A stretch of 64,000 nt of DNA from Thermoanaerobaculia bacterium (GTDB taxonomy: Bacteria; Acidobacteriota; Thermoanaerobaculia; Gp7-AA8). Each line of letters opens with the position of its first letter. Within the stretch, counting starts at the first letter, position 1. Below are positions 1 through 20,133 of the stretch, piece by piece. Where the stretch lies: NCBI GenBank assembly GCA_035626775.1, contig DASPNA010000152.1, positions 64,135-128,134 of the forward strand, given 5' to 3'. The notes beneath the pieces were generated by a model. The model had not been told where the DNA came from. It was given only the letters and a program-made list of their open reading frames with translations, and did no database searches. A program made the translations under genes and the position numbers.

Positions 1-125
1 TCGCGGCCATGGCGATATGAAATACAACGATGGGCAGCTTCGCGATCGCGGCGGTGAAGTAGAGCGGCACCGCCGCGAACATCGTCAGCAGGAGCGTCTC
101 GATCTCACGCGCTCTTGGCGTCATG
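1..125 (-). CDS. N-terminal fragment of a membrane protein downstream of DUF58; continues beyond the window start. Possibly the transglutaminase-like/membrane partner of MoxR-DUF58 operons.
   Basis: Reverse complement of 1-125 reads MTPRAREIETLLLTMFAAVPLYFTAAIAKLPIVVFHIAMAA..., a hydrophobic N-terminus. The position after DUF58 matches the usual MoxR-DUF58-membrane protein order. It is a partial ORF only. Confidence 0.3.
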
Positions 126-1151
126 ACGTCCTCCTGCCAGCGAAAACACGACCGCGGTGCGATCGACGAGTTGATGCACCGGCTCGTGCTCCGCTTCCAC
201 CAGCGCCAGCGCGCGGAAGAGCGGCGCCGCGCTTTCGTCCTGCCGCGCGCGCAGCGTCACGCGCGGCATCGACAGCGTCACGTCCATCCCATCGCGGACG
301 GCGTAGTACACGAGCGTCGCCGCGGCGGCGATCATCTCCTCAAAGTCGTCTGTCGGTGTCCTGCGCGGTTTGTATGGATCGAGCACGACATGCAGCGACT
401 GTGACGCATCGGCCTCGTGCTGCTTCATGATCCAGCGGCCGAGGCTCGCGGATTTTTTCCAGTGCACCTGACGGAGCGAGTCGCCGCGCGCGTATTCGCG
501 GAACGCGTGGATCTCGGTTCCTTGTCCCGGGCGCGCGGCCGCGACTTCGTCGCCGAACGTCGCGCGGAAACGATCGCGCGCCGCGTCGTCGGCGTTGATG
601 CGCGGATAGACGACCACTTCGCTGCTGACGCGCAGGCGCCGCTTCTTCAGCACGAATCCGAACGGGTAACGCGTGTACGAATCGATCGCGCTCACATGCG
701 CGAGACCGCGGCGCGGAAAGAGAAATGTGGCTGCGACCTGGAGCGGCGGGCTCTTAGCCCGTCGAAGCCACCAACGGCCGACGGGCTGAGAGCCCGTCGC
801 TCCAGATGGCACGAGCGGGACCAGCACAGGTTCGGCGAGCGCTTCGGAGGTGAGGACGACATCGCGCACGTTCCAGAGACGCGAGTCGTTACGGATGCGC
901 AACGTGCCTTGCGCAGGACGTCCGGCCCACGCTTCCTCGATGCCCGCGATCTCGATGGTCAGATGTTTCAGGCCGCCCTTCGACGCGAGGCCGGAGAGCA
1001 ACAGGCAACCGAGCATCAGCGTGACGGCGATGTAAATCGCGTTGTTGCCGGTGTTGATCGCCGCGACCGCGAGGACCATCGTGGCGAGGATGTACGCCGT
1101 GCCGACTCGCGTCAGCCGAACGACGCCGTTGAACTCCCAGTCGTTGGTCAC
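105..1151 (-). CDS. DUF58 (vWA-like) domain protein, partner of the MoxR ATPase
   Basis: The 348-aa ORF carries the DUF58 hallmark IHAFREYARGDSLRQVHWKKSASLGRWIMKQHEADASQSLHVVLD. It sits immediately downstream of moxR. It also contains an in-frame copy of repeat family B (738-805). Confidence 0.8.
   Translation of the reverse strand: MTNDWEFNGVVRLTRVGTAYILATMVLAVAAINTGNNAIYIAVTLMLGCLLLSGLASKGGLKHLTIEIAGIEEAWAGRPAQGTLRIRNDSRLWNVRDVVLTSEALAEPVLVPLVPSGATGSQPVGRWWLRRAKSPPLQVAATFLFPRRGLAHVSAIDSYTRYPFGFVLKKRRLRVSSEVVVYPRINADDAARDRFRATFGDEVAAARPGQGTEIHAFREYARGDSLRQVHWKKSASLGRWIMKQHEADASQSLHVVLDPYKPRRTPTDDFEEMIAAAATLVYYAVRDGMDVTLSMPRVTLRARQDESAAPLFRALALVEAEHEPVHQLVDRTAVVFSLAGGRHDAKSA
738..805. repeat. 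Family B palindromic MITE/REP-like element, copy B1 (inside the DUF58 ORF)
   Basis: CTGGAGCGGCGGGCTCTTAGCCCGTCG...CGACGGGCTGAGAGCCCGTCGCTCCAG. Terminal inverted repeats and internal palindromes are shared with copies at 20032-20096 and 50362-50422 and a half copy at 35765-35785. Confidence 0.7.
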
Positions 1152-1159
1152 GGTTCGTC

Positions 1160-2122
1160 TTACCGGGGGACTGCGATCTCGCTGAGCAGCTTCTGGAGGA
1201 ACCGCGCTTCTGGCGATACATCGCCGCGGCTCATGCGCCGGTCCTTCATCACGATGCGATGCGACAACACCGGCACCGCCAGGCGCTTCACATCCTCGGG
1301 GATCACGAAGTCGCGTCCGCCGACCATCGCCAGCGCCTGGCAGGCCTTGAAGTACGTGAGCGCGCCGCGGGTCGAGACGCCGAGGGCGACGTCGCCATGC
1401 GTGCGCGTGATCTGCACGATCAGCATCAGGTACTCGACCAGCGCCTCGCTGACGTGCACGTCGCCGACGCGCGCCTGCAGCTCGCGCACTTCATCGCCGT
1501 CGAGCACAGCCTCGAGATGTTCGAGCGCGTCCTGTCCGCCGCCGGAGCGGAGGAGTTGCTTCTCGTCATTCGCGCTCGGATAGCCGATGGTGAGCTTCAT
1601 GAGGAAGCGGTCGAGCTGCGATTCCGGCAGCGGATACGTGCCGACGTGCTCGATCGGATTCTGCGTGGCGATGACCAGGAACGGATCGGGCAGCGGCATG
1701 CGCCGCTTCTCGATGGTAATGATGCCTTCGCTCATCGCCTCGAGCAGTGCGGATTGCGATTTCGGTGTGGCGCGATTGATCTCGTCGGCGAGCAGAACGT
1801 TGGTGAAGACCGGGCCGGAGACGAACTCGAACTCCTGCAGGTCCTGGTTGTAGATGGTGACGCCGACGATGTCGGAGGGGAGCAGATCGCTCGTGAACTG
1901 GATGCGCTGAAAGCCGAGCGACAGCGAGCGCGCCAGCGCATGTGCGAGCGTGGTCTTGCCGACGCCGGGAACGTCCTCGAGGAGGATGTGTCCCTTCGCG
2001 AGCAACGCGGCGATGCAGAACTGGATCACCTCCGACTTGCCGCGGATGACACGTTCTACGTTCTGCTGCAGCGCCGAAATGCGGTCGAGAGAGCGCGGGA
2101 CCGGTACGGGTTGCGTCGACAT
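1160..2122 (-). CDS. moxR: MoxR-family AAA+ ATPase
   Basis: Walker A LLEDVPGVGKTTLAHALA, Walker B VLLADEINRATP, and ATQNP, all typical MoxR. The protein is 320 aa. Confidence 0.9.
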   Translation of the reverse strand: MSTQPVPVPRSLDRISALQQNVERVIRGKSEVIQFCIAALLAKGHILLEDVPGVGKTTLAHALARSLSLGFQRIQFTSDLLPSDIVGVTIYNQDLQEFEFVSGPVFTNVLLADEINRATPKSQSALLEAMSEGIITIEKRRMPLPDPFLVIATQNPIEHVGTYPLPESQLDRFLMKLTIGYPSANDEKQLLRSGGGQDALEHLEAVLDGDEVRELQARVGDVHVSEALVEYLMLIVQITRTHGDVALGVSTRGALTYFKACQALAMVGGRDFVIPEDVKRLAVPVLSHRIVMKDRRMSRGDVSPEARFLQKLLSEIAVPR

Positions 2123-2192
2123 ACTTTTGTTCTACGTGCGACAGTGCGCGTTCGTTCTCCGGTGCAACAGGGTGGCCATGGGGCGCATTCTC

Positions 2193-2337
2193 CGGTCGGA
2201 GTACCTCGGAGTACCTCGGAGTTCCTCGGAGTACCTCGGGTTCCTCGGAGGGGCTCGGCAGTTCGTGGTTGAACTCCTCCGAGGAACTCCGAGGCACTCC
2301 GAGGTACTCCGAGGTACTCCGAGGAACCGAGGTACTA
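2193..2337. repeat. Family A composite hairpin repeat, copy A1. Tandem 10-bp units GAGTACCTCG/GAGTTCCTCG form a long imperfect inverted repeat.
   Basis: Left arm is 5 tandem units, followed by a central spacer, then right arm CTCCGAGGTA units (the reverse complement). Related copies lie at 32421-32517 and 47165-47268. Confidence 0.8.
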
Positions 2338-2344
2338 ATCGAAC

Positions 2345-2590
2345 CCTCAGCGCGAGCTGACCCGGATCGACCGGCTTGCGCACGAAGTCGCTGAAGCTGG
2401 GCGTCCATCACGCGGCGATAGTCGTCCTCGCCGGTGCCGATGGCCGAGACCGCGATCCCCGGTCCTTCGACTGCTCGCGGATGTGGCGCACGAGAGTGAG
2501 TCCGTCCTCGACCGGCATGGCGATGTCGCTCACGACCGCGTCGAACGAGCCGTTCTCGATCAACGCCATCGCGTGCGGCGGACGCTGCGC
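2345..2590 (-). pseudogene. Remnant of a CheY-like response-regulator receiver domain (C-terminal two-thirds, at least 2 frameshifts, N-terminal half missing)
   Basis: Three minus-strand frames together read ...ALIENGSFDAVVSDIAMPVEDGLTLVRHIREQSKD / GIAVSAIGTGEDDYRRVMDA / SFSDFVRKPVDPGQLAL. These are the beta3-alpha5 motifs of a receiver domain (DxxMP, KPV). No intact ORF exists and upstream stops remove the N-terminus. Confidence 0.5.
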
Positions 2591-2924
2591 TCATGACGCC
2601 AGAGCCCCGGCGCGGGGCTCAACTTCGCGGCGTGACGTCGAGTAGCAGGCAGTCCTCAGTTCAGACCGAACGGCAGGATCTCGCACCTTTCTGCGACCGC
2701 TCGTTCAACTGGCTTCAGGCGTATTCCGGATGGGTTACTTCCGGCGCGCTTCTTCCAACTGCAAACATATTTTTTTGTCCCACCCCTCCAAAGAGGCGCA
2801 CCGCAACGGCGGTACCGCGTTTAATTCTGTTCCCAATCGACAAGCGATGAGTTTTGCCAGTCATGCGCAATGCCCGCATCCGTTGCGCGCCGTTTCGATG
2901 AATGTCCGGTAGACGAGGGAAAGC

Positions 2925-5900
2925 ATGAAAGAAAAATGCGCGGTTCAAGCGAGTGAAACAAGGCGGATCACGAAAGGAGCGGCGTTAAGGCAAACCGGCG
3001 GCGGCCGGACGCGAATTTACCGGATGCTGCTCGCGACTCTCTTTGTCGCTCTGTTCGCGACCTCGCCCTGGGCGGAGGCGCAACCCGCCCGGTGGAACTA
3101 CCTGAGGGATTGGTTCGATCTGACCACCGCCAGTGGCCTCGCGCAAGCCCAACAACACGCGTTATGGGTTCTCGACAATGAAAGCTGGTTCATCGCGAGC
3201 GGTTTTGGCAACGGCGTCCATTACAGGACCGCCGACATGCCCAGACTGCACATCAAGTTGGTGAGAGATGATCTCCGCAAGATTCAAGAGGCCGCGCAAA
3301 TGCGGGGGCTGCGGCCGCAACACCAGACCGCTCAATACCGCCTCGCGAACCAGGCGCCGTACAGCGTCACGATGGGCCCGGCTGCCTTGACCTTTCAAGG
3401 TGCGTCCGTGCGAATGATCGAGGGTACGCGATATGAGCAGACCATCAATCGCGAAATAGAAATCGGCGACATCGTCACCAAGTGCAACAAGTTCAACACG
3501 GTTTCTGCGTTTTCCGGGTGGGCCACCGAAGTGGTGGCGGATCCCACGTTCAATGGTTCGTACCTCGACTCCTACAAGAACCAGTGGCTGAAAGGTCGCC
3601 TGACGCGGACGGCAGTCGAGACATATCGCGAGCCCAAACCCGACAGCTGCAGCCGGCACGTGGCCCGGTATGTCTACCGCTACGAGTATCACGGTCCTGA
3701 CGGGAGGATCCTCGCTTTCTTCCAGCGTCCGCAGGAAGTACCGGGGACTTCGACGTGGACTGCGGACAGTTGTCAGACGCGACAACCGATCCCTGCCCCG
3801 GAGCCGGACCATTTCTGGTCTTCGGAAGGAAACGCCGCACTCGACACATCGAACAAATGCCGCCCGGTGATTCGGTGGGCAGACGGGTCGACGGAAGAGT
3901 TTCACATGGCCGAAAGCCAACGCGATGTGAGCGCGTTCTCGCCCGAGGTCGCCAAACCTTTCAGGCCGACGTGCGCCTCAACAGACCTCACGAACGACCT
4001 GCGTGCCAAGGACCGTAATGGCAACATCACCACCTATCGTTTCACCAGCACAACCGAGACCATGATCGATCCGCAGGGACGTGAGACCATTCTCACGTTC
4101 GAACCGACGGACGACCGCGGCTTCCGACGCCTGATCAGCGTCGACCTGCCGTCTGTTGGCGCTGCACCGCGTCACCGGTACACGATCCAGTGGCGCGCGC
4201 CGCTCCAGGTTTCTTTTGCATCGATCTGGCCCGATGTGACCTGCCGCACGAGAGAGGGAGCCGTTCAAGCCTGCGGCACGAGCTTCGTTCAATTGGTGGA
4301 CTCCGTCACGATCCCTGACGGGCGTCGCTACACGTTCGAGTATGGCCCCTGGGGGAATCTGACGCGAGTCACGGAGCCTGGCGGCGCCATTCGCGAGTTC
4401 CAGTACGGCGATGCGGCCAACCTGGCGTACGCACGAGCGGCGTCTACGGAATCGGACACACTCATCGATTCGACCGATTGCGGCGTCATGTGGTCGGAGG
4501 AAACTCTGCGCATGCACGCTCGTGGCCTGGTCCGCGAGCGAGTCCTGCCGGACGGCGTGGGCGGCGCTGTTTACGAGACGAAAACCAACATCGTGGTGGA
4601 AAGGCTGAATCCGCAGCTGTATCCGCAATGCGAATACGACATCGTCGGAGCGGCTACGCGCGGGCCGGATGGTTGCGCGCAGGTCTGGAGAGAGAACACG
4701 CTGCCCGACGGATCAGTCGTGCGAAACGGTACCGTCTCTCGTGCGATTCCTTTCCCGACGGACCATGAAGATGACGTATTCACGTTGCCGCCGTCCGTGC
4801 CGGTGCTCATCCACGGATGGAGCATCGGGCAAGAGCGTTGGTCCGGCCCAACGTTGCTCAGCGCGCAATACTCCGGCGATAAACAGACCGGCGAGCTCTA
4901 TTACGACTTCGATCTGGTCAAGGCGGTCACTCTGCCCGGCGCAATCCCGGCGAACGTCCGTCCGTCGAAGGCGATCTCCTTCAAGGACGGTTTGTACACG
5001 ACCTCAAATTTCGTCTATGGCAACGCAGTGGATATCGATCCAAATCCGACCGCGCAGGAGTTGCGTGACACGGAATCGGCTGTCTCGACGTGTCTGTTCG
5101 GTGGATTGGTCGTCGCGCGCGGCTGTACCCCGCCGGGTGGGCGTCCGCTCGTCCGTACGGACAACGCGTACGTCAATTATCACGGTCCGGCGATTGACGG
5201 CCCGAATCTTCTTGGACTGGCCGCGGCAAACCGCATTTACGGACCCAACTCCACGGGCACGGCATTTTCCACGACCGCTTTGGCGGAAACGTCGATCGCG
5301 TTCGATCAATTCGCCGTGGTACCGAGCGGTCGGCCAAGTTCGTCTCTCGACCCAAATCTCGGGCGAGCCGCCGGCACGCCGCGCGGGAACGCCACCAGAA
5401 CCACGCAGAGGGTGAGCGCCGGAAAATTCATTTCCAGCGAAATCCGGTATTTCGATACGGGCGACGTGCAGTCGAGTACCGATGCAATGAGACGCACAAT
5501 GACGTCGCTGCAGGATTTCTCATTGTGCAGTTCGAGCACGCCACGATGGACGACGACCACCACGAATGCGCTCGGCCATGTGGCGAGCATCACGGTTGAC
5601 TGCAGTTCCGGGTTGACGCTGAAGACGACTGACGCCAATGGTGAAAGTAGTTTTTCACAGTATGACCATTTAGGACGGTTCGTGGAAACGGCAGGTCCGG
5701 GAGACCAGCTCACGGCCTTGCCACAGTCAGGTGCCCAGGCGTTCACGCGCGCGCCGGACGCTCCGACAGGCGCAGGCACGAAGCCGGGTGACGCAAGGGC
5801 CGCAGGATGGAGGGAGTACCTCGATTTCGGCATCCTCGGCCGGCAGCGTACGGTGATCCATGACAGAGATGGTTCGCCGGACGGCTATTACGTCAAGAGT

Positions 5901-8900
5901 TTCATGGACGGCCTCGGGCGGACCGTACAGACGAGATCCGAAGCTGATCCGGCCAGGTCTGGTTTCGCAGAGGTGGTCTCGACTACGGTCTACGACGGTC
6001 TTGGCCGAGCAGTCAAGAGCCTCGTGCCCTGCTTCGCCGCGTCCAGCAGCAGCATCACGCCGCATTGCGGCTCGGTCGCCACCGAGATCGTATATGACGC
6101 TTTGAGCCGCCCGACAAAAGTCACCTCCCCTGGCGCGGTGACAGTGACCTCTGCTTTCACGCACCAGGACGGCCGCTGGCTCACCATCAATGTCGATGGA
6201 CGCGGGTTGACGACGAAGAGATTCTCGAACCTGCTCGGCCAGGTCGAGCAAATAGACCGGCAGTCCGCGCTCTGTGGCGGTTTCTGTACGGAAAGAGCCA
6301 CGTTCGACGCCGCCGGCCGAACCCTTACCCAGGGAGACGCAGAGGGAAACACCATCCGTTACACGTACGACGATCTCGGCCGACCGTTGTCGATGTCCGA
6401 CCCAAACCTGGGCAACTTGACTTATGCGTATGACGACAACGGAAACTTGACGCGGCAGGTTGATGCAAAGGGGCAGACGATCACATTCAACTATGACGCT
6501 CTGAATCGATTGACCCTCAAAGATTTGCCACCGGCCGGACCGAGCATCGAAGACGTCACCAATTTCTATGATGGCCAGGGACCGAAACCGCCCGATCCGG
6601 GGAGCGCGGCGGCGATCGCATCGATCGCTCCGAACGTGCGCGACGCCGGGACCGGCGCATTCACGCTGACTGTTGACGGCAGCAATTTCGTCGCCGGTTC
6701 TGTAGTGACTTTCAATGGTCAAAGCCGGGCCACGACCTTCGTTAGTTCGCAGCAACTGCGCGCCGCGATACTCGCCGGTGACGTCAACACTGCCGGCTCG
6801 TTCCCGGTGATGGTCGTGAGTCCAGCCCCTGGCGGCGCGTCGAATGCCGCGACGTTCGTCGTCAACGCACGACCAGTGGTCAGTGTGACGCGGCCTGCTG
6901 CGAGCGCGATCTTCGATGCGCCTGCCTCGATCATCGTGGAGGCTGCTGCGACCGACGGCGACGGCATCCGCCAAGTCGAGTTCTTCCAAGGTGCGGCAAC
7001 TTTGGGCGTTGACCAGACGGCGCCGTACTCGGTCAGCTGGAGCAGCGTTCCGGAGGGCACTTATCGATTGACGGCAGTCGCGACGGATACCCGCGGCAGC
7101 ACCACCACCTCGGCGCCGGTCGACGTCACTGTCCGGCCGGGCTCACCGGTGAACGCGTCACAGTTCGTTTCACAATCGGTCCCTGCTGTGATGGTGGCAG
7201 GGCGAACGTACAACGTTTCGGTCACGGTGCAGAACAGCGGTACTACGACATGGACCGCCGCTGATAAATACAATCTCGGCTCCGAGGGGCCGCGGGACAA
7301 CCAGACGTGGGGCTTACACCGCGCACCGCTTCCTGGGTCCGTGCCGCCAGGAGCGCAGGTCACGATCCCGTTCACGGTCACCGCGCCAGCCACACCGGGC
7401 GAGTACGGGTTCCAGTGGGGGATGGTGCAGGACATGGTGGGAGGAGGATGGTTCGGCGCCACCCCACGAGTCACCGTCCGTGCGGAATCGCCTGTGAATG
7501 CGTCACAGTTCGTTTCGCAATCGGTGCCTGCTGTGATGGTGGCAGGGCGAACGTACAACGTCTCGGTCACGGTGCAGAACAGCGGTACTACGACGTGGAC
7601 CGCCGCTGATAAATACAATCTCGGCTCCGAGGGGCCGCGGGACAACCAGACGTGGGGCTTACACCGCGCACCGCTTCCTGGATCCGTGCCGCCAGGAGCA
7701 CAGGTCACGATCCCGTTCACTGTCACCGCGCCAGCCACTCCGGGCGAGTACGGGTTCCAGTGGGGGATGGTGCGGGACATGGTGGGAGGAGGATGGTTCG
7801 GCGCCACCCCACGAGTCACGGTCCGTACGGAAGCACCGGTGAACGCCGCACTGTTCGTTTCACAATCGGTCCCTGCTGTGATGGCGGCAGGGCGAACGTA
7901 CGCCGTCTCGGTGACCATGCAGAACAGCGGTACTACGACATGGACTGCCGCTGATAAATACAATCTCGGCTCCGAGGGGCCGCGGGACAACCAGACGTGG
8001 GGCTTACACCGCGCACCGCTTCCTGGATCCGTGCCGCCCGGAGCGCAGGTCACGATCCAGTTCACGGTCACCGCGCCAGCCACTCCGGGCGAGTACGGCT
8101 TCCAGTGGGGGATGGTGCGGGACATGGTGGGAGGAGGATGGTTCGGCGCCACCCCACGAGTCACGGTCCGTACGGAAGCGGCGGTGAACGCGTCGCGCTT
8201 CGTTTCGCAAATCGTCCCTGCTGCGATGATCGCGGGGCGCACCTATACCGTCTCGGTGAAGATGCAGAACAGCGGTACTACGACCTGGACCGCGGCCGGC
8301 CTATACAACCTCGGCTCGCACGGGCCGCAGGACAACACGACATGGGGCTTGCATCGCACCCCGCTTCCGGCCTCAGTGCCGCCGGGTGCGGAGACGACGT
8401 TCCAGTTCACAGTCACGGCCCCAGCGACGCCGGCCAACTACGTCTTCCAGTGGCGCACCGTGCAGGACACCGTGCAGTGGTTCGGCGAACTGACACCGGC
8501 CGTCACGATCCCGGTGCTTTCCGCCGCGAAGACGGGGCTGATCGCGAGCTGGAACTTCGACGAGGGCATGGGTACGACGACCGCTGATGCCACTGGCAAT
8601 GGAAGCACGGGTACGGCGGGTAAGCTCGACTGGACAAAGGGACGTATGAATTCGGGACTGCGGTTCGTGAGCACAACCAACAACCCGGTGAGGATCAGCC
8701 CTTCGCCCAGGGTCTCTGCGCTGAGTAACGACTTCACGGTTTCGTTCTGGGCGCAGCCGGAGTCCGCGCATCAGATCGACGTGGCGAGCGGCAGCGGCGC
8801 TAGCGGTGTCACGGGCCAGAAATATGTGATTGGTCCGCGCTACGAGTCGTTTGGAGACGCAGGCATTGGCATCTCGCTCGGCAACAACGGAGTGAGTGTC

Positions 8901-9416
8901 TACGAACACAGCGCGAGTCACATGCCGGCAGTGCTGGTGTATTCGGCACCGATCAGCGGCTGGACGCACATCGCCGTGGTGTATGAAAACAAAAGGCCGA
9001 CGCTCTATGTCAATGGCACATCGGTGCTGATCGGCGGGACCAGCTCGCGGTCGAATGTATACGCCGTGCCGGCCGACATCGGCGGGATGGCCTACGGCTA
9101 TTACGACGGTCTGCTGGATGAGGTGCGCATTCACGACAGTGCGCTGAGCCCGGCAACGATCGCGGCAATGGCTCAGGAGACTGTGGCGGATTTGAAAATC
9201 GATGGAGAAACCGGGACAGTGGTGGCGGATGCGTCGGCCGATGCTGCGCAACCGATGGCCCTGCTGAGCGGAACCGTGTCGGCCGACGGCCGGACCACGT
9301 GGATCGACCCCACCTCCTCCTCGACCGGAGACCTCCGTACATTCTCGGCGCGCCTGCGCAAAGCATCGTCTGTTTTTCCACTCACGAATCAACACCGACG
9401 GTTGGAGCCGCTATGA
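2925..9416 (+). CDS. Giant secreted multidomain protein: signal peptide, N-terminal YD/RHS-repeat region, IPT/TIG domain, bacterial Ig-like domain, 4 tandem NBR1-like Ig domains, C-terminal LamG/concanavalin-like domain
   Basis: Good RBS GAGGGA before ATG 2925 and signal-like [22 protein letters not shown] repeats: [36 protein letters not shown]: [33 protein letters not shown]. Four ~115-aa repeats: [31 protein letters not shown]...[16 protein letters not shown]. LamG-like: [12 protein letters not shown]...FTVSFWAQP. Confidence 0.85.
7141..8520 (+). repeat. Intragenic tandem DNA repeat, 4 x ~345 bp. Copies 1-3 are almost identical at nucleotide level and copy 4 is diverged. Each unit encodes one NBR1-like Ig domain.
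   Basis: Unit boundaries at about 7141, 7486, 7831 and 8176. Copies 1-3 differ at only a few positions. The antisense ORF 7061-8242 is a by-product of the repeat. Confidence 0.8.
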
Positions 9417-11569
9417 CGACCATCGAACACTTGCCCATGCATGATCGAGAGTCATCACTTCTGCGCGGCCGTAACGCCGGGAATGGAGAGAACACCGTGA
9501 CCAATCACCGATCCGATGCAAACCGATTGCTTCGTCGTTCCGTCATTGCTGTCGCAATCTCGTTTTGGAGCGTCACCGTACATGCACAGGCAGTGAACAC
9601 GACCACGAAACAGCTCGGCCGCTTGACGTCGTCCGGCAACGGTCTTACGCGAACGTATTTCCAGTACGACCCTCGGGGCCGCACGACGGCCACGCAAATC
9701 GTACAGGACGGACAGAGTCGCGTATTCAGGACACGCTACGGCTACCCGCAGAACCCGGCTGTTGCTGAAGGCCCTGGCACCGTCGCCGTTGCGCAGGTCT
9801 TGCCGGACGGCGACGAGGTCACTTACGCACATGACGCCATGGGGCGGCAGGTGACGATCAAGAGCACGCTCGGCTCCGCTACCGATGAGGTCCTGCGCGA
9901 TTTGCGACTCAACGCCCGCGGGCAGGTAACCAAGGTTGTGTTGGGAAACGGCACGACCACGCAGACCACATACAACGAGGCTGGAGATCTGCGCCTGGCG
10001 AGCACGGTGACGACCAACGCTGCAGGGCAAAAGATCCAGGAGTACCGATATACCTATGACGCGAATGGCAACGTCACCGGCACCAGCGATGGCGTGCGCC
10101 CCGATCAATCGGCGACGTATGGTTACGACGAGCTCGGGCAGCTCACAGTCATCAACAATAGCTCAGGCAATGCCATCGAAAGCTATAGTTATGACAAGAT
10201 CGGGAATCTCACTCAAAAAGGAGCGCTCGCGCAGACGTACGGCGCCGGCGGCCGGCCTCATGCCCTGGCGTCGTCTGGCGGCATCCCGTACAGCTACGAC
10301 GGCAACGGCAATGTTGTCGCCATCGGCACCACGACCACTCTGCAGTGGAACGGCGAGAACATGCCGGTGACGGTGGCGGCGGGCGCGGTAAACATCCAGA
10401 GGTCCTACATCGGTCACGCTTTGTGGAAGAAGGTTGAACAAGGGAAAACCACCTACTACCTGCCGTCGATGCACGTGGAGAACGGTGTCGCCACGAAGTA
10501 CTACGGCACGCTCGCGGAACGAACCGAACAGGCGGGGAACCGCGGACTGCGTTTCTACCACGCGGACCATCTGGGCAGCTCTTCAGTAATGACCGATCAG
10601 TCCGGAAACGTCATTCGGCGCGCATCCTACCTGCCGTGGGGGCAGGACCGGGGCGTGGTCGGTACGTTCGTACCCAAGCTGCAATTCAACTTCAAGGAAA
10701 AAGATGCGGCCGGCTTCTACGACTACGGAGCCCGTCTCTATCACCCGACAACGGGACGCTGGTTGTCGGCAGACCCGCTGTTGCTGGACGGCCCGAACCG
10801 CTATGCCTACGTCCGAAACAATCCGTTGACGTTCACCGATCCGACTGGATTGGCAGTGGACGACTATTTCATCAATAGAGACGGATCGATCTACAGAGTA
10901 CTCACAGATGACACTTTCGACCGCTTTTACGTCGAGACCGAAGACGAAAATTTGAGCGGCGGTTATACGCTCGCCGCACAGATCGAGAGAAATGAGGACG
11001 GTCTCACGCTGTTTCCTGCCACTGGTAATGGATTCGGTCGCCACCAAACATCCGAGCGCGGCGGTGAGTCCAAGATCACGCTAAAAAACGGCCGAGTAGT
11101 CGTAGAGACGGTCGGGTCTGGTGACCACTATCTGAAGCCGGCCACTGCTGCCGCTCTGTTTGGGGTCATTCACTTCTTGAACGCGAACTATCTCTCCTTC
11201 GGTGACATGTCATCGTCGAACGGAAGCGATCCATGGCAAACGGGGATGGATCATCATGGTGGTCACGGACACTTCGGCAAGCGGAGCGGCCTCGATATCG
11301 ACTACCGGTACCTTGACGCAGACGGCAACGCCCGGCAGGGCGTAATGACCGATTCGTGGTTCCATAGAGGCAACAATCAGGCGCTTTACGATAAGGCGGC
11401 TCTATTCGGATTCAACAACAATTACTCTGGGTTTTCCGTCGACCCCTTCGGAAACGCCAGGCAGCTGGGTGGCCACGATAATCATGGCCATCTCGGACAC
11501 AGCGGTGACGTGACGCGAACGATGACCCGGGAGCAAGGAAGAGGTTTCTACCCCTTCATCGTACGGTGA
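9413..11569 (+). CDS. RHS-repeat protein with RHS core and a divergent ~240-aa C-terminal domain (putative polymorphic-toxin-type effector)
   Basis: ATG 9413 overlaps the upstream stop (ATGA). Signal-like RRSVIAVAISFWSVTVHAQA. YD repeats: YTYDANGNVTG, YGYDELGQLT, YSYDKIGNLT, YSYDGNGNVV. RHS core: FYHADHLGSSSVMTDQSGNVIRRASYLPWGQ ... YDYGARLYHPTTGRWLSADPL ... DPTGL. The C-terminal tail carries HHGGHGHFGKRSGLDIDYRY and GGHDNHGHLGH. Confidence 0.85.
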   Translation: MTTIEHLPMHDRESSLLRGRNAGNGENTVTNHRSDANRLLRRSVIAVAISFWSVTVHAQAVNTTTKQLGRLTSSGNGLTRTYFQYDPRGRTTATQIVQDGQSRVFRTRYGYPQNPAVAEGPGTVAVAQVLPDGDEVTYAHDAMGRQVTIKSTLGSATDEVLRDLRLNARGQVTKVVLGNGTTTQTTYNEAGDLRLASTVTTNAAGQKIQEYRYTYDANGNVTGTSDGVRPDQSATYGYDELGQLTVINNSSGNAIESYSYDKIGNLTQKGALAQTYGAGGRPHALASSGGIPYSYDGNGNVVAIGTTTTLQWNGENMPVTVAAGAVNIQRSYIGHALWKKVEQGKTTYYLPSMHVENGVATKYYGTLAERTEQAGNRGLRFYHADHLGSSSVMTDQSGNVIRRASYLPWGQDRGVVGTFVPKLQFNFKEKDAAGFYDYGARLYHPTTGRWLSADPLLLDGPNRYAYVRNNPLTFTDPTGLAVDDYFINRDGSIYRVLTDDTFDRFYVETEDENLSGGYTLAAQIERNEDGLTLFPATGNGFGRHQTSERGGESKITLKNGRVVVETVGSGDHYLKPATAAALFGVIHFLNANYLSFGDMSSSNGSDPWQTGMDHHGGHGHFGKRSGLDIDYRYLDADGNARQGVMTDSWFHRGNNQALYDKAALFGFNNNYSGFSVDPFGNARQLGGHDNHGHLGHSGDVTRTMTREQGRGFYPFIVR

Positions 11570-11741
11570 TCAGGTTGAACGGCCCCGTCGAACAGGTCTC
11601 ACGCTCTCAACGTCCGCTGGTTCCGGCCAGCGGACGTTGTTCTCTCTGTACCTCACACCTCGAACAGCGATTCCGCTCGCACCGTCAAAACGCCACGCGC
11701 TTCGACGACTGAAAGAGGGAGCCGTTCGTCCCTGGATCACC

Positions 11742-12213
11742 ATGACCAGCAAGAAAACAACCGCGGGCTTCACCGTCGCCGAGCTGATCACCGTGGTGAC
11801 CATCATCGGCATCCTTGCGGCGCTCGCTCTGCCCGTGGCGAGAGTCGGAGTTCGGCGCCAGAAGGAAATCGAGCTCAGGGCGGCGCTGCGAAAAATTACG
11901 GACGCCATCGACCAGCATTACGACCTGCGGACGATGGGAATGATCAAGAATCCTCCGCACATCGGTCAGGAGAGTTACCCGCGATCGCTCGATGAGCTCG
12001 TCGAAGGCGTGGAGCTCATGCCCGCAGGAACGCGCGTCCGCTTTCTTCGTCAGCGCGACCTGATCGATCCGATGACCGGGCGGGCGGAGTGGCGCACTGT
12101 GTCCGAGAGCGACAGCCCGGACACGTTGACGAGCGACGGCAACACGTTTTCGAAGTGCACTCCACGTCGACGGCGCTGTCGCTCGACGGCAAGACGCGCT
12201 ATAGCGAGTGGTG
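11742..12213 (+). CDS. Prepilin-type N-terminal cleavage/methylation domain protein (type IV pilin / T2SS pseudopilin-like); C-terminus probably frameshifted
   Basis: MTSKKTTAGFTVAELITVVTIIGILAALALPV is a class III signal (G|F, E+5). The +1 frame near 12140 ends ...DVFEVHSTSTALSLDGKTRYSEW*. The listed ORF instead runs into the convergent regulator gene. Confidence 0.55.
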
Positions 12214-12214
12214 A

Positions 12215-12859
12215 TCAGTCCGGTCGAATGAGGCCGCGTTGGATCGCCTGCGTCGCGGCCTCGGTCCGATCCTGCACCCCGAGCTTCATCAGAATCTTCT
12301 TCACGTGACCTTTCACGGTCTGTTCGCCGATCCCCAGAATTCCGGCAATGACCTTGTTTCGCGTTCCCGGAATCAGCAATCGCAGAACGTCGCGTTCCCT
12401 CTCCGTGAGCAGCGAGGAGCTCCGCGTGTAGTTGACGAGTGCGGCCGATGCCTCCGCTGAAAGGTACCGGCGTCCGGCGTGAACCGCGCGGACCGCGCTG
12501 ATGATCTCCGACGGGTCGGCGTGCTTGAAGACGTACCCTCTCGCTCCCGCGGAAATGGAGTTGTGTACGTCTTCTTCGCTCCCGTAGCTGGTGAGCATGA
12601 CGCAGCGACAGCAGCAAGATGCCTCCGCCAGGGCGTGAACGACATCGACGCCCGAGTAGGAGCGCAGCCGGAGATCGACCACCGCCACGTCGGGACTCTT
12701 CTCGCGGCAGATCGCGACCGCACCCTCCAGATCCTCGGCTTCGCCAATGACCTCGATGTCGCGATGGTTTGCGAAATACGAACGAAGTCCGTGCCGGACG
12801 ATGAAATGATCGTCGACCAGGAGGAGACGGATTCGCTTCGTTTGCTGCATCACGCTCAC
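12215..12859 (-). CDS. NarL/FixJ-family response regulator (receiver + LuxR-type HTH)
   Basis: RIRLLLVDDHFIVRHGL...VAVVDLRL receiver. C-terminal LTERERDVLRLLIPGTRNKVIAGILGIGEQTVKGHVKKILMKLGV HTH. Start overlaps the HK stop (ATGA). Confidence 0.9.
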   Translation of the reverse strand: MSVMQQTKRIRLLLVDDHFIVRHGLRSYFANHRDIEVIGEAEDLEGAVAICREKSPDVAVVDLRLRSYSGVDVVHALAEASCCCRCVMLTSYGSEEDVHNSISAGARGYVFKHADPSEIISAVRAVHAGRRYLSAEASAALVNYTRSSSLLTERERDVLRLLIPGTRNKVIAGILGIGEQTVKGHVKKILMKLGVQDRTEAATQAIQRGLIRPD

Positions 12860-15790
12860 GCACGCACCTCCACGATGATCTCGAAGCCGCTGCGGCGGCT
12901 GTTCGCGGTCAGCTTCGCCCCGATGCGCTCCGCGCGCTCGCGCATGCCGCGCAACCCGTAACTCGACGAGCCCACTTGCTCCACGTTGAACTCGCCCGAT
13001 CCCTTTCCGTCGTCGCGAACCATCAGGCTCACCTTCTTCGGCTGAAAATCGATCCTCAACAGCACGTTCCGCGCGTTCGAGTGGCGCAGCGCATTCGTGA
13101 TCGCTTCCTGGCCGATCCGAAGAAGGTGATGCTCGATGACGGGATCGCTCAGGCGGCGCCGTTTGCCCACCACCTCGACCTCGCCGCGAATGTGCAAACC
13201 CTGAGTCATCGTATGCAGGACGTCGGTCAACGCCTGGGCCAGATCATCGGCTTCCAGTCGTTCGGAACGGACGTTTTGCAACCCGTTTCGCACCTCGGCC
13301 AGCGTCGTCATCAGCAATCCCTTGACGTTCTGCAGATGCTCGCTCGTTGCCTCACGATCGTCGGCGGCGTCCAAGGCACTCTGGACGTGCAGCATCGCGC
13401 CGGTCAATCCCTGCGCCAGGGTGTCGTGCATCTCGAGCGAGATCCGTTTGCGCTCGTCCTGAACGGCCTCGAGCCGCATGCGCACCTGGTGCAAACGCCT
13501 GTGATGGGCGAACCAGGCCAGGGATAGTAGAAGGGCCGCAGCCACGGCTCGGAACCAGTGCGTCTGATAGATGGCTGGCAGCCGCCGCACGTCCACCACC
13601 GAAGCAGCCAGCCAACGGCGCTCGTGCCCATCCGCCGCTTCGACGCGGAATTTGTAGTGGCCTGGCGGAAGACTGGTGTACTCGGCCACGCGGGATTCGC
13701 CCGCGTTGATCCATCCGTGGTCGTAGCCGTCGAGGCGGTAACGGAAGCGAACATGTTTGGCGACGACCGTTGTGGGGGCCGTATAGCGGAACTCGATGCG
13801 GTCACGATCGGTCTTCATCACGACCGGACCCTCGAGCGCTACGGTCGTGGCGTTGACGCGCACCCGCTCGACGAGCGGCGGTGTGCGCAATACCGGAGCT
13901 TGCCGGCGCGGGTCGAGAACGGCCAGGCCTCGCGCGGTGGACAGCCAGATGCGGCCGTCCGAGGCGTACCAACCCGAGGGAGACACGCCGAAAGAGCACT
14001 CCACGGAGGGCATGCCGTCGCTCACGCCATACACGACAGGATGCACTGTGGAAGTCCCTTGCCGAAAAACGGTGTCGAGCTCCTCGCGCGCTACGCGGGC
14101 GACACCCTTCGCAGTGGCGATCCAGAAAAAGCCGCGGTCGTCTTCGAAGAGTTGACTGACGGCGCCGTCAGGCATTCCTTGCTCAGCGGTGTAGCGAAAT
14201 GTGCCGGTGCCGTCGAACCGGTGCACGCCGGTTCGCGTGCCGAACCAGATCTCGCCGCGGCGATCCTGCGAGATCGTGATCGTGACGGCCCGCGGAAGTT
14301 GTCGTCCATCGCTGCGATCCGTAAAGCGCTCACCGTCGAACACGCGCGGTCCGCCACCGGAGTGGGGAGCGACCCAAAGGCGACCCTGCCGATCCTCGAA
14401 CATGTTGCTCATGAATTTCGACGGCAACCCATCCTCGAGACCGTACACACGCAGCCGGCCGTCCTTCAGATGAACCAGACCTTCCAGGGTACTGATCCAC
14501 AACGAACCGTCGCGTGCGCGAAGAAGACCCATGATGCAGTCGCTCGGCAGACCGTCGGCCTGGGTATAGACACGGACCGGCTTCCCGCCTTCGAGTCGAT
14601 AGAGTCCGCCGCCGTAAGTACCAATCCACGCCCGCTCCGCCGTTTCGGGTGCGACAGAAGTGACGAAGGCGTCGCGCAAAGGCGTGGACGCCGCGACATG
14701 CGTCCACGTTCCTTGGTAGAAGCGGTTTACGCCTCCCCGTTCCGTGCCCGCCCAGATCGATCCGTCATCGCCTTCGGCGACGGTCCAGGTGACATCGGAC
14801 GACAAGCCTTCGCGCCGGGCGTACGACTGGAAGGATCCTTCGAGCAGTTGGTTGACGCCGGCCAGGTGCGTTCCAGCCCACAGTGTGCCCTCGGCGTCTT
14901 CGAAAATCGATTCGACGAAGTCGTGAGAGAGCCCATCCTTCGCGCCGATTCGCGACAACCGGCCATTGGTCCAACGCCACAATCCGTTCCTGGTCCCGAC
15001 CCAGAGCGTGCCGTGCCGGTCGATGAACAGGCGCCACGTCTCTTCGTTGATCAGCTGTTCGATCGGACGTTCGACACGTGAACCCGAATAACGCCGAGGC
15101 CCCCACGAGCCTGCGAACCAGATCTCTCCCCCGGACGTGCTCACGACAGTGTAGATCTTGCCTTCGACTCCCTCGATTTTCGTGGTTGTGCTGCCTGCGC
15201 GCCGATAGAGCCCATCCCGCGCGCCGATCCAGAGAGTTCCCCGGTGCATCGCCAACGCATAGATGGCGCCAGGCGCGCCCGTCTGGTGCACGACACGGCC
15301 TTGCGCGTATCGAAACAGTCCTGCTGTTCCTGAACCGAACCAGATGTCGCTGCCTTCGCCGCCGACGATCGCGAAGACGGTCAACTCCGAGCGTTCATGG
15401 ATCAGCGCAAATCGATCGTCCCGATAGGAAAGGAGGCCACCATTCGTTCCGATCCACAAGGTATTCGCGCGATCGCGATACAGACTCAGGACGTTGTTTC
15501 CTCGGAACGCAGCGACGTTGCTGGAGTTGAAGACCTCGAAGCGGACACCGTCGAAGCGGACCAGTCCTTCCTGCGTGCCGAGCCAGAGGTATCCGTCGCG
15601 CGTCTGCGCGATCGCCTGCACCGCATCCTGGGGAAGACCGTCTTCGACGTCCCATGAACGCTGGACGTACTGTGTCAACGGAACCGCGGGATCCAGTGCA
15701 TGCGCTTCGACGCACAGGATGAGGCTCAACGAGAAGACCGCCCATCCCAACCGGTGCAACGGCGACACGTCCGGCTCTCCTCCCGGCATG
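12856..15790 (-). CDS. Sensor histidine kinase with large periplasmic beta-propeller (two-component-regulator propeller / Y_Y_Y type) sensor, TM, HisKA_3 and HATPase_c
   Basis: Preferred start is MPGGEPDVSPLHRLGWAVFSLSLILCVEAHA (signal/TM). Repeated propeller blades: LWIGT..GL, IWFGT..G, LWVGT..GL. H-box RKRISLEMHDTLAQGL. ATPase region NALRHSNARNVLLRI...DDGKGS...GLRGMRERAERIGAKL. Confidence 0.85.
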
Positions 15791-16285
15791 GTTGAATCAA
15801 TTGGCGCGAGCGGCCCGAGAATAGGCCGTGCGAAGCGTGCAGGGGCCTCGAAAGAGGGGGCCTGCGAGACTCGTTTCGAGCTGTTCAACGAATCGTCATC
15901 CATCCGTGACCGGCCGGGGCGCCTTCGCCGCGGAACGCCTTCATACGCCGGAACAAACTCCGGGGAACAGCAGACCGACCCACGCATCGTAGCTCCAGCC
16001 TGCGTCCCTGGATGAAAGGGTTCATCAACAACACCATGCGCACAATGTCGACGGGCGCCCCGCCGAGCGGCATGAAGACGAAATACGCGGCGCGCGCGAG
16101 GCACAACGCGATCGACGGCAGCGCCGGTCCCACGCGGCGGTGAGCACGAGCGCCACGGTCATTCCGCGACGACGCCGCTCGCGAGCGCGGTCTTCATGGC
16201 CGCCGGCCCCTCACCCGGACGTTGGCCACCCTCTCCCCGCAAGCGGGGCGAGGGCTACCAAAGCGTGAGCGTCCCCATCGTGGCC

Positions 16286-17998: not shown

Positions 17999-18030
17999 GC
18001 GGTTGTGCTCCTCTTTGGGCGCGCATTGTA

Positions 18031-18190
18031 GTGGAGCGCCGGCGCGTTTACGGAGTGCGGCGACGCCAGTCGCCGCTTTCCAACGCCGCAGCGGAAGCTG
18101 CGGCTGGCCCGCGGAGGCTGGCGCCTCCGCATAGAAAGCGGCAGCTGGCGCTGCCGCACTCCACACGGCGCGGGACGCCGGCGCTCCGCC
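18031..18190. repeat. Family C GC-rich nested palindromic element (C1) in the divergent ETF-QO / wecA-like intergenic region
   Basis: Outer arms GTGGAGCGCCGGCGC / GCGCCGGCGCTCC. Inner arms GGAGTGCGGCGACGCCAGTCGCCGC / GCGGCAGCTGGCGCTGCCGCACTCC. Related to copies at 22351, 26067 and 29162. Confidence 0.6.
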
Positions 18191-18212
18191 TGCTATCCTT
18201 CCACCCGGTCCG

Positions 18213-19283
18213 ATGGCTGAGCTTTACCTTCCGCTGGTCCTGCTGTTCGTGTGCAGCGCACTCACCTCGTACGTGGCCACGGCCATCGTGAGGCGGGGCG
18301 CGACGCGCGTCGGGCTGGTCGACGAGCCGGGCGATCGGAAGCTGCACACGGTCGCGACACCGCGCCTCGGCGGGCTGGCAATCATCTTCGGCTTCGGCTT
18401 TCCGTTGCTACTGCTCGCCGCAAACTCGCGCGCGGCGGAGCTGGTGACGAAGAACCTCACGTATCTCTTCGCCGTCCTGGCCAGCGGCTCGATCATCGTC
18501 GGCCTTGGCGTCTACGACGATCTGATCGGCACGAACGCGCCGCAGAAATTCGCGGCGCAGTTCGCGGCGGCGTTCATCCTGGTCGCGTTCGGATTCCACT
18601 TCGACTTCATCTCCCTCGCCGGCACCATCTTCGACCTCGGCATCCTCGGTGCCATCGCGTCCGTGCTGTGGATCGTCGGCGTGATGAACGCGATGAACTT
18701 CATCGACGGCATGGACTCGCTCGCGACCGTCGTGGCGATGACGATCGCGGCCTCGTTCAGCGTCATCGCCGTGTTCCGCAACGACCTCTTTTCGCTCGTG
18801 ATCATGACTGCACTCACCGGCAGCCTGATCGGCTTCTATCCGTGGAACAAGCCGCCGGCGAAGATCTTCATGGGCGACACCGGCGCGCTCTTCATCGGCC
18901 TGCTGCTCGCCGCGGGATCGATCGCGCGGCCGAGCAAATCGCCGACGGCGCTGATCATCGGCGGGCCGATGCTCGCGCTGGCGCTGCCGGTGATCGACAC
19001 GCTGATCGTGATGAAACAGCGCTTCGGCGGCAAGAGCGTGCCGATCGGCGCGCGTCTGTCTCGCGTCTTTACCGCCGATCGCAAACACATCCACCACATC
19101 CTCGTCGCCCGCTACGGCGGTCCGGGCAAGGCGATTCTCGCGATCTGGCTGGTGACGCTGCTCTTCGCGGCGGCCGCGGTGATGACGGCGATCGATGGCT
19201 GGAAACGCGCCGGCTACGCCGCCGGTGCGGTGGCGCTGCTTGCGCTGTTCGTGTTGCGTTATTTCCCACGGCGGAACGCGTGA
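18213..19283 (+). CDS. WecA/MraY-family polyprenyl-phosphate N-acetylhexosamine-1-phosphate transferase (initiating transferase for polysaccharide synthesis)
   Basis: Multi-TM protein with the family motif VMNAMNFIDGMDSLA and DDLIG. 356 aa. Confidence 0.85.
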   Translation: MAELYLPLVLLFVCSALTSYVATAIVRRGATRVGLVDEPGDRKLHTVATPRLGGLAIIFGFGFPLLLLAANSRAAELVTKNLTYLFAVLASGSIIVGLGVYDDLIGTNAPQKFAAQFAAAFILVAFGFHFDFISLAGTIFDLGILGAIASVLWIVGVMNAMNFIDGMDSLATVVAMTIAASFSVIAVFRNDLFSLVIMTALTGSLIGFYPWNKPPAKIFMGDTGALFIGLLLAAGSIARPSKSPTALIIGGPMLALALPVIDTLIVMKQRFGGKSVPIGARLSRVFTADRKHIHHILVARYGGPGKAILAIWLVTLLFAAAAVMTAIDGWKRAGYAAGAVALLALFVLRYFPRRNA

Positions 19284-20026: not shown

Positions 20027-20031
20027 CCCAT

Positions 20032-20096
20032 CTGGAGCGACGGGCTCTCAGCCCGTCGACGCACGAGAACCGACGGGCTGAGAGCCGTCGCTCCAG
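20032..20096. repeat. Family B element, copy B2
   Basis: CTGGAGCGACGGGCTCTCAGCCCGTCGACGCACGAGAACCGACGGGCTGAGAGCCGTCGCTCCAG. Confidence 0.75.
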
Positions 20097-20110
20097 AAAT
20101 GATCTCCCTA

Positions 20111-20130: not shown

Positions 20131-20133
20131 CGA

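Follow-up and report, generated by a model that had tools for sequence, protein, structure and literature searches.

Single-chain and two-chain RHS capsules

RHS (YD-repeat) capsules are known in two forms: as single proteins (Rhs, WapA, teneurins), and as the TcB/TcC pair of insecticidal Tc toxins. In solved RHS proteins, the core acts as the plug of the shell and cleaves the toxin off. TcB-TcC (TcdB2-TccC3, YenB-YenC2) builds its RHS/YD cocoon from two polypeptides, and the smaller of the two contributes both the RHS core autoprotease and the hypervariable toxin. A large subunit can go with several small ones; in YenTc it has been shown to serve alternative small subunits (PMC11067744).

Several single-chain groups also bear on the gene pair described here. 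T6SS Rhs effectors (RhsA, Tse5, Tse15, RhsP, Tre23) share its shell fold, core autoprotease and C-terminal toxin (encapsulated in the effectors), but each is encoded by one gene, has a PAAR or VgrG-binding N-terminus, lacks a signal peptide and is delivered by the T6SS. Some of them self-cleave into fragments after translation, but no two-gene example is known to us. Polymorphic RHS/YD toxins that depend on Sec and have adhesion domains form a class in Zhang et al. [quoted passage not shown] Such proteins (WapA; P0192, P0204, P0022, P0081) have, like the pair, a signal peptide, YD shell, core, DPxGL cleavage and variable toxin, with LamG, discoidin, NBR1-Ig and TIG decoration; they are one chain each, whereas two genes share the shell in the pair and in all of its close relatives. 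Bacterial teneurin-like proteins (TLPs; PMC13018210, PDB 9ifo) are unsplit single chains with an FN-plug, NHL propeller and YD-shell superfold. They are mostly Sec-exported, as the pair would be, with a YD shell enclosing a polymorphic toxin, and are also found in Acidobacteriota; they are predicted to be surface-anchored and have immunity genes (PMC13018210).

A two-gene RHS locus in an uncultured soil acidobacterium

The pair lies in a 64 kb stretch of DNA (the window), on a contig from a metagenome assembly; the host is an uncultured soil acidobacterium. Judged by homology, complementarity and linkage, from which their assembly is inferred, its two genes probably encode two parts of a single RHS toxin capsule. 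Roughly two thirds of the shell comes from gene 1, which continues into Ig-like and lectin-like domains; the last third, the core and the toxin come from gene 2. The features are as follows.

2925..9416, + strand: gene 1, the “base” subunit, with signal peptide, YD half-shell and binding domains, 2163 aa (ORF, translation, Pfam/NCBIfam)
2925..3080, + strand: gene 1 N-terminal leader, a Sec-type signal peptide with a hydrophobic core of 14 residues, then AEA/QP (sequence)
3081..6605, + strand: gene 1 N-module (aa 53-1227), covering roughly two thirds of an RHS/YD shell
6606..6863, + strand: IPT/TIG-like (CoaZ repeat) domain, aa 1228-1313, first decoration directly after the half-shell (NF058597, E 9e-27)
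6873..7076, + strand: Big_7 bacterial Ig domain, aa 1317-1384 (PF17957, E 1.6e-14; PDB 9kvu Ig domain, E 7.5e-17)
7146..8489, + strand: four tandem NBR1-like Ig (N_BRCA1_IG) domains (PF16158, 4 stretches, E 2e-24)
8679..9164, + strand: LamG / concanavalin-like lectin domain (Laminin_G_3), aa 1919-2080 (PF13385, E 1.3e-16)
9404..9416, + strand: coupling junction, with GGAG at 9404-9407, gene 2 ATG at 9413-9415 and gene 1 TGA at 9414-9416 (sequence)
9413..11569, + strand: gene 2, the “cap-toxin” subunit, 718 aa (sequence, Pfam/NCBIfam)
9413..9586, + strand: gene 2 leader, its own Sec-type signal peptide, RRSVIAVAISFWSVTVHA/QA (sequence)
9587..10552, + strand: gene 2 YD repeats, aa 59-380 (~320 aa), the missing third of the shell
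10553..10849, + strand: RHS core / aspartyl autoprotease plug, aa 381-479, with D454, D476 and the DPTG/L site (PF03527, TIGR03696)
10850..11566, + strand: variable C-terminal toxin, aa 480-718 (239 aa), a mobile polymorphic-toxin domain (homologue divergence)
11608..11639, + strand: terminator-like hairpin with a 14-bp stem and T-rich tail, closing the two-gene operon

At the junction (gctATGAcg, 9410-9418), the gene 2 start and gene 1 stop codons share bases, as the preliminary description had read them, so that the ORFs overlap by 4 nt in different frames; GGAG, five nt 5' of the ATG, is the Shine-Dalgarno sequence of gene 2. With the terminator-like hairpin after gene 2, these features make the two genes an operon. 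Between gene 2 and the terminator or the pseudopilin gene there is no plausible small, immunity-size ORF. A cognate immunity gene downstream is typical of antibacterial RHS toxins, if not strictly defining; the pair differs from a typical RHS toxin in having none directly downstream, and in having no complete shell plus core in one polypeptide. The neighbouring pseudopilin gene has an apparent frameshift. No T6SS genes are found among the ORFs neighbouring the pair, and the window shows no evident machinery for export across the outer membrane or for translocation.

The gene 1 product is identical to P0001 (NCBI), a protein of a Thermoanaerobaculia MAG. Its long YD region (1,175 aa, with RHS-shell fold) was expected to be followed by TIG, Ig-like, four NBR1-like Ig and LamG domains, without an RHS core, and Pfam and NCBIfam searches find just this. 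RHS_repeat matches at E 1e-24, DUF6443 matches at aa 992-1043, and the core models PF03527 and TIGR03696 have no match. Pfam's own TIG model matches weakly (E 8e-4; 19.8 bits, under the 20.9-bit gathering cut-off). The four N_BRCA1_IG domains correspond to a tandem DNA repeat at 7146-8453 (345 nt x 3.8, 90% matches). A crude hydrophobic-segment scan finds a hydrophobic N-terminal segment in 15 of 17 full-length family members.

Gene 2, identical to NCBI P0211 (labelled “RHS repeat-associated core domain-containing protein”), likewise has the predicted content of further YD repeats, canonical core and variable C-terminus. The YD repeat models PF05593 and TIGR01643 match both proteins; in gene 2, RHS_repeat matches at E 2e-19, RHS (PF03527) at aa 381-411 and Rhs_assc_core (TIGR03696) at aa 406-480 (E 5e-20), and the motifs FYHADHLGSS, YDYGARLYHPTTGRWLSADPL and DPTGL are all found. 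All of the domain matches in this confirmation, for either gene, are far past chance. D454 and D476 are invariant in 75 homologues and 22 residues apart, as are the two Asp of the Tse15 D1369/D1391 mutant named in PDB 8uxt. With both catalytic Asp and the DPTG/L site intact, the core is a predicted autoprotease. A hydrophobic N-terminus is also present in the two aligned homologues of gene 2, and in the crude scan 51 of 71 family members are positive.

Homologues of gene 2 are 46-69% identical up to DPTG and unrelated beyond, diverging exactly after it. Unrelated proteins end in the same C-terminal domain: it was found in 120 representative proteins of up to 2766 aa, nearly always at the C-terminus. 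It has conserved His/Asp motifs, and 3 of 14 members have weak, sub-threshold Pfam matches to Peptidase_M74 (E >= 0.099); from these it is possibly a LAS/MepA-like zinc peptidase.

A probable single shell in two polypeptides

Structure and profile comparisons both relate gene 1 to RHS shells. A model of its YD module (pLDDT 82) resembles the Rhs, teneurin and TcB-TcC shells, and by these comparisons the region is a true RHS-type shell. On the single-chain RHS protein P0192, the gene 1-module family maps to 256-1041 (Prob 99.9, E 3e-32) and the gene 2 family to 1067-1504 (E 2e-19); on P0204, also single-chain, they map to 264-1115 and 1129-1583, so that the two modules lie end to end and collinear. 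On solved Rhs shells, the aligned residues of gene 1 and gene 2 are 643+389 of 1047 (7pq5), 649+377 of 1021 (8qja) and 642+375 of 1037 (8qjb), sums close to the whole chain in each. The content is complementary: gene 1 offers shell but lacks a core, while core and toxin are found in gene 2.

The fused or split state was surveyed in relatives. There are ~21 non-redundant informative loci, all in Acidobacteriota and mostly in Thermoanaerobaculia; both modules are adjacent and on the same strand in 19 of them, none has the modules fused, and both gene orders occur. No RHS core is present in 26 gene 1-family proteins. Over 14 locus pairs, the pairwise identities of the two modules are correlated (r = 0.93; Mantel 0 of 5000), although simple linkage would give likewise. 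The preliminary proposal of an RHS shell split across two polypeptides is thus supported by domain content, mapping and relatives; as far as could be found, the literature holds no description of this particular split, which is conserved in relatives.

The adhesin-like domains, described at first as appended to the first half, are so here but are not fixed there. They are C-terminal to the gene 1 module in this locus and in L001, L003, L007, L008, L009, L053, L059 and L075, and N-terminal to the gene 2 module in L005, L011, L070, L071/72 and L073; in L067/L068 neither partner is decorated. In sequence, the decoration switches partner but keeps to the seam between the halves. In L005, L011 and L066 the base is a YD module alone. 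Caps can also be multiplied: L009 has two, the P0105 contig has the order cap-base-cap, and L053 has base-cap-180 aa ORF-cap (WHH/colicin DNase)-123 aa ORF, with a small immunity-like ORF after each cap. These arrays suggest that one large subunit serves several small ones here, as in TcB-TcC.

The two proteins could instead be independent, gene 1 a surface adhesin with a YD beta-sheet stalk or scaffold and gene 2 a small self-sufficient RHS toxin, brought together by recombination at an rhs locus. RHS loci are recombination hotspots, each protein has its own signal peptide, and caps do occur elsewhere, with no base within 12.5 kb in L076 and beside other genes in L006. This seems unlikely, however. 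Gene 2 alone is ~37% of a shell (375-417 of ~1040 residues aligned), and with ~320 aa its YD repeats are too few to enclose a toxin of 239 aa. Independence also leaves aside that the modules are contiguous on single-chain RHS proteins, that adjacency persists in 19 of ~21 loci despite changes of order and of the decorated partner, and that bases with no adhesin domains still adjoin a cap.

Relation to TcB/TcC and other RHS systems

The resemblance to TcB/TcC noted at the outset stands as a functional one; the pair is not a member. That the pair is a diverged BC unit from a Tc (ABC) toxin, which has to dock on a translocator (TcA-like or other) encoded at another place in the genome, is less probable still than two independent proteins. 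The attraction of this reading is that TccC2 and YenC2 have the cores most similar in sequence to that of gene 2 (E 1e-18 to 4e-21 against PDB TcC cores), and that in L006 a cap homologue is directly upstream of a canonical TcB-like gene. By fold, gene 2 best matches YenC2, with 397 of 668 residues covered; it has a core and a hypervariable region, and also a signal peptide. SpvB, the FG-GAP propeller and TcdB_toxin_midN form the TcA-docking gate in solved Tc structures. Gene 1, by contrast, has no SpvB, FG-GAP beta-propeller or TcdB_toxin_midN/midC match at E <= 0.01, in a Pfam search by which every one of these domains is recovered from the L006 TcB-like gene. Both proteins have Sec-type signal peptides, unlike Tc components, and the window holds no TcA-sized gene, its largest other ORFs being 1082 and 955 aa. 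The split point is also different: the cap is ~430 aa, ~270 residues shorter than the ~680 aa of TcC. The lectin and Ig domains at the seam, and the occurrence in soil Acidobacteriota, sometimes with immunity-like ORFs (L053), are further differences from TcB-TcC; this occurrence, with the immunity-like ORFs, suggests that the targets are bacteria and not insects.

A single RHS gene broken by frameshift, assembly error or domain insertion is very improbable: the ORFs do overlap by 4 nt in different frames, on a metagenome contig with a frameshifted pseudopilin gene nearby, but gene 2 comes with a Shine-Dalgarno sequence and a signal peptide of its own, there are >110 clusters of 600-780-aa caps, the split recurs in independent assemblies with 1-nt overlaps or gaps of ~190 nt, and a frameshift is excluded because close relatives are all split, never fused, and variable in gene order.

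Neither gene has a Pfam or NCBIfam match to PAAR, DUF6531 or VgrG, or a Pfam match to NHL, the propeller of the TLPs; the Pfam search detected no FN-plug either, and the shell is split where that of the TLPs is not. DUF6531 starts the shell in the decorated single chains P0022, P0031, P0081 and P0084, and is widespread among other generic RHS matches; the gene 1 family lacks it, and it was likewise detected in neither P0192 nor P0204.

If the pair is a two-part capsule, the polypeptides would be exported separately by Sec and then join edge to edge, as TcB and TcC do, so that the toxin, cut by the core, ends up enclosed in the shell. The TIG, Big_7, NBR1-Ig and LamG domains would project from the seam and may bind surface carbohydrate, whether of a target cell or of the producing cell's envelope. 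What is exchanged would be the cap-toxin subunit, one base pairing with alternative caps, since more than one cap is present at some loci, with a different toxin on each. The toxin encoded here might be a zinc peptidase acting on the cell wall. The case seems evenly balanced for a broader reading: that this is a second, independent evolutionary invention of the two-piece RHS capsule, distinct from TcB/TcC, in which a Sec-exported base with lectin/Ig targeting at its seam self-assembles outside the cytoplasm with interchangeable cap-toxins, as a TcA-independent, glycan-targeted particle of soil Acidobacteriota.

The genes are now labelled apart, as “LamG-like/Ig-like/discoidin domain protein” and “RHS repeat-associated core domain protein”, with no sign of pairing, and their annotation can be corrected. 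The pair offers a compact cargo-encapsulation scaffold of ~1,600 aa without TcA, and as a two-protein system makes testable how an RHS shell folds and closes round an unfolded toxin after Sec export, and how targets are chosen. A second, independently split form, if true, would mean that a YD shell can be divided at more than one point, that targeting domains can be grafted at the seam, and that the toxin part can be swapped as a whole subunit, beyond recombination of C-terminal tips: a natural modular route to varied cargos in one RHS shell.

Organization of the two-gene locus

Genes 1 and 2 form a conserved pair organized as an operon, with separate signal peptides and complementary RHS shell content. 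As the preliminary description had it, gene 2 starts inside the gene 1 stop codon, and this can be read directly from the sequence:

2925..9416, forward strand: gene 1 ("base"), open reading frame (ORF) of 2163 amino acids (aa)
9413..11569, forward strand: gene 2 ("cap"), ORF of 718 aa
11608-11639: hairpin after gene 2, with a 14-bp stem and a T-rich tail

Positions 9410-9418 read gctATGAcg, so that the gene 2 ATG (at 9413) overlaps the gene 1 TGA (9414-9416); a GGAG lies five nt upstream of this ATG. The hairpin stands 3′ of gene 2, and the two genes therefore make up a compact operon. By tblastn, no other copies or orphan fragments of either protein are found in the window. Each protein has an identical entry from a Thermoanaerobaculia (Acidobacteriota) metagenome-assembled genome, where the two carry separate labels: “LamG-like jellyroll fold” protein for gene 1, and “RHS repeat-associated core” protein for gene 2.

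Gene 1 begins with a Sec-type signal peptide (predicted cut before QP). Domain model searches agree with its earlier reading as a YD-repeat protein (matches to RHS_repeat, YD_repeat_2x, and DUF6443) with TIG, Ig-like, four NBR1-like, and LamG domains, and give no match to either RHS core model:

gene 1 aa 1228-1313: TIG/CoaZ repeat
gene 1 aa 1317-1384: Big_7
7146..8453, forward strand: four N_BRCA1_IG (NBR1-like) domains
gene 1 aa 1919-2080: Laminin_G_3

At the DNA level the NBR1-like domains are a 345-nt tandem repeat in 3.8 copies (90% matches), a copy number that comes from a short-read metagenome assembly and may be unreliable; the repeat, whose first two copies are nearly identical as protein, suggests that duplication was recent. 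Ahead of these domains lies the N-terminal module (aa 53-1227), which is conserved over its full length in ~26 protein clusters (31-53% identity), several of which consist of this module alone (1156-1259 aa); none of the gene 1-family proteins carries a core. Its AlphaFold2 model is all-beta and confident (pLDDT 82.4, pTM 0.80).

Gene 2 has its own leader, with a predicted cut between …RRSVIAVAISFWSVTVHA and QA. YD repeats make up the next ~320 aa, and the RHS core and a C-terminal domain of 239 aa complete the protein. Gene 2 matches RHS_repeat, PF03527, and TIGR03696 (E 5e-20), and the core motifs quoted in the preliminary description are present. D454 and D476, 22 residues apart, and the site between DPTG and L are invariant in 75 homologues; judged by sequence, the autoprotease motif is intact. 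Modelled alone, the gene 2 shell and core are predicted very confidently (pLDDT 92-98).

Mapping onto RHS shells and comparison with known systems

The earlier proposal that one RHS shell is split over two polypeptides gains support from profile mapping, PDB residue sums, relatives, and the position of the binding domains at the seam, where the two parts would meet. In profile-profile comparisons, the gene 1 module aligns to residues 256-1041 of P0192, a single-chain RHS protein of 1698 aa (Prob 99.9, E 3e-32, 709 columns), and the gene 2 family to residues 1067-1504 (E 2e-19); in P0204, another such protein (1780 aa), the ranges are 264-1115 (E 4e-32) and 1129-1583 (E 2.5e-17). Both families thus map in order, nearly gapless, and end to end onto single-chain RHS proteins. 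The first ~230 structured residues of gene 1 (aa ~130-360; window 3081..~4000) are well-modelled beta structure and lack a counterpart in these matches, which begin at gene 1 aa ~360; they might close the opposite end of the shell.

Residues aligned to PDB entries (counts only, without aligned positions)
7pq5: gene 1 module 643, gene 2 389; 1047 resolved
8qja: gene 1 module 649, gene 2 377; 1021 resolved
8qjb: gene 1 module 642, gene 2 375; 1037 resolved

These sums are supportive rather than conclusive of a joint shell, because the comparison tool does not display the aligned residues. When the profiles of the two families were searched against PDB sequences, all matches were local, to repeats or core, with no global mapping. 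The YD repeats of gene 1- and gene 2-type sequences resemble one another (29-34% identity), and as a result MAFFT joint alignments slid the last 100-400 residues of gene 1 types onto gene 2 columns, or the reverse. Module identities of the two types are correlated over 14 locus pairs (r = 0.93; Mantel 0/5000), which fits partnership, though linkage alone would give the same. Overall, both genes probably supply parts of one RHS shell. If gene 1 were instead an independent adhesin and gene 2 a mini-RHS protein, neither the small shell content of gene 2 nor the conserved pairing would be expected, and this reading is unlikely.

On its repeats, core, cleavage site, and variable toxin, all of them found here, the pair can be assigned by sequence to the RHS/YD polymorphic-toxin superfamily, but it departs from that superfamily's rule of a single polypeptide. 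The likeness to TcB/TcC seen earlier holds for how the pair works and not for membership: the SpvB, propeller, and TcdB_mid domains of TcB are all absent. In TcB-TcC the subunit ends meet, and the two were crystallised as a direct fusion (PDB 4o9x title). The pair might still be a divergent BC unit needing a TcA encoded elsewhere, since gene 2 is structurally like TcC and a cap in one relative's locus (L006) adjoins a true TcB-like gene; with those three domains missing, Sec signals present, and no TcA-sized ORF in the window, this is rather improbable. In the L006 locus (10001..20135), the cap P0279 (722 aa) is followed directly by a canonical TcB-like gene (1475 aa; SpvB, FG-GAP, TcdB_toxin_midN) and then by a 1048-aa YD protein ending in DUF4082, a layout that may connect the cap family with true Tc-like systems.

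Of the single-chain proteins, those most closely related to the pair are Sec-dependent RHS proteins, including P0192 and P0204. Decorated single-chain RHS proteins (P0022, P0031, P0081, and P0084) have the same binding domains, placed before the DUF6531 shell start. Bacterial teneurin-like proteins (TLPs) share the Sec-exported, surface-anchored lifestyle (PMC13018210), but each is a single chain bearing an NHL propeller, where the present pair is two chains. A literature search for split, bipartite, or TcA-independent RHS proteins, with most subscription journals outside its coverage, yielded nothing beyond Tc toxins, single-chain Rhs proteins, and TLPs.

Gene order and decoration among relatives

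Relatives were surveyed by contig look-ups and by scans of species-representative genomes and metagenomes, followed by ORF and BLAST analysis; the scans were queried with the gene 2 alignment, that of gene 1 having no sufficiently conserved stretch. Of ~21 non-redundant loci whose flanking DNA was long enough, 19 have the two modules side by side on one strand and none has them fused, which answers the fused-or-split question raised in the preliminary description in favor of split genes. The order is base-cap in the window, L001, L007, L009, L053, and L059, and cap-base in L003, L008, L005, L011, L066-L068, and L070-L075; junctions range from a 1-nt overlap to a ~190-nt gap. A frameshift or assembly artefact is therefore excluded as the origin of the split and, with the identical split in independent assemblies and in both gene orders, artefact or pseudogene is an extremely improbable reading. 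One cap has no base within its 12.5-kb contig (L076).

The placement of adhesin-like domains on the first half, as first described, holds for the window and eight other loci, where binding domains are C-terminal to the gene 1 module. It does not hold for L005, L011, L070, L071/72, and L073: there the base is bare, and discoidin, LamG, CBM6, Big_7, PKD, or NBR1-Ig domains are fused ahead of the gene 2-type module. The binding domains switch partner and keep their place: in both layouts they separate the C-terminal end of the first shell part from the N-terminal end of the second, an arrangement to be expected if the particle brings these two ends together. L067/L068 is an exception: in L068 neither base (1179 aa) nor cap carries binding domains.

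Cap proteins of 600-780 aa form >110 clusters, which are 40-69% identical over aa ~60-480 and diverge beyond DPTG, bearing out the description of the C-terminal domain as variable. L009 has two tandem caps, and the P0105 contig has the order cap-base-cap. The L053 array (1752..12484) contains a base (YD + BACON + LamG, 1876 aa), a cap, a 180-aa ORF, a WHH/colicin-DNase cap, and a 123-aa ORF; the two small ORFs have no Pfam match and look like immunity genes. This layout resembles toxin-immunity cassettes, except that what is exchanged here is an entire subunit, leader included. At 8 kb downstream of the array there is a group II intron reverse transcriptase.

Toxin domain, neighboring genes, and proposed assembly

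The toxin domain of gene 2 occurs in 120 representative proteins (up to 2766 aa), nearly always C-terminally, with conserved motifs GDHYL, GDMSSxNGSDPW, HHxGHGHxGxRxGxDxDxRY, and GHxDHGHL. These are similar to the H-x-D and H-x-H zinc sites found in MepA and other LAS peptidases; the sole computed support for a peptidase is Peptidase_M74 matches in three of 14 members, all sub-threshold (E at least 0.099). The window domain itself has no Pfam match at E ≤ 10, and neither single-sequence nor 14-member profile searches found a PDB sequence match; its AlphaFold2 model is unreliable (pLDDT 25-50). No immunity-size ORF follows gene 2 in the window. The neighboring genes are:

105..1151, reverse strand: DUF58-like protein (translation read by eye)
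1160..2122, reverse strand: MoxR-type AAA ATPase (translation read by eye)
11743..12214, forward strand: GspG/pseudopilin-like gene, prepilin-type N-terminus GFTVAELITVVTIIGILAALALP
12215..16104, reverse strand: Reg_prop/Y_Y_Y sensor histidine kinase (1082 aa) and LuxR-type response regulator, adjoining the RHS pair

The first two, which directly precede gene 1 on the other strand, seem to have no connection with the RHS genes. The pseudopilin-like gene is apparently frameshifted near 12140-12150, by either assembly error or pseudogene formation: one frame stops being protein-like after “...TSDGNTF”, and the other reads “...VFEVHSTSTALSLDGKTRYSEW” to a stop, ending exactly at the stop of the adjacent response-regulator gene. 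Homologues of the kinase and regulator are likewise adjacent in L001/L063, L069, L007/L055, L059, and L068, which may reflect regulation of the RHS locus or mere synteny among close relatives.

In the proposed mechanism, both products would be exported by Sec and then join at their edges to form a closed capsule, with the gene 2 core cutting off the toxin and plugging the shell. Through its lectin and Ig domains, the seam could bind surface glycans of the target or of the producer's own envelope; a glycan-binding role was proposed for the same domains in single-chain toxins by Zhang et al. (PMC3482391). Caps might be interchangeable on the base.
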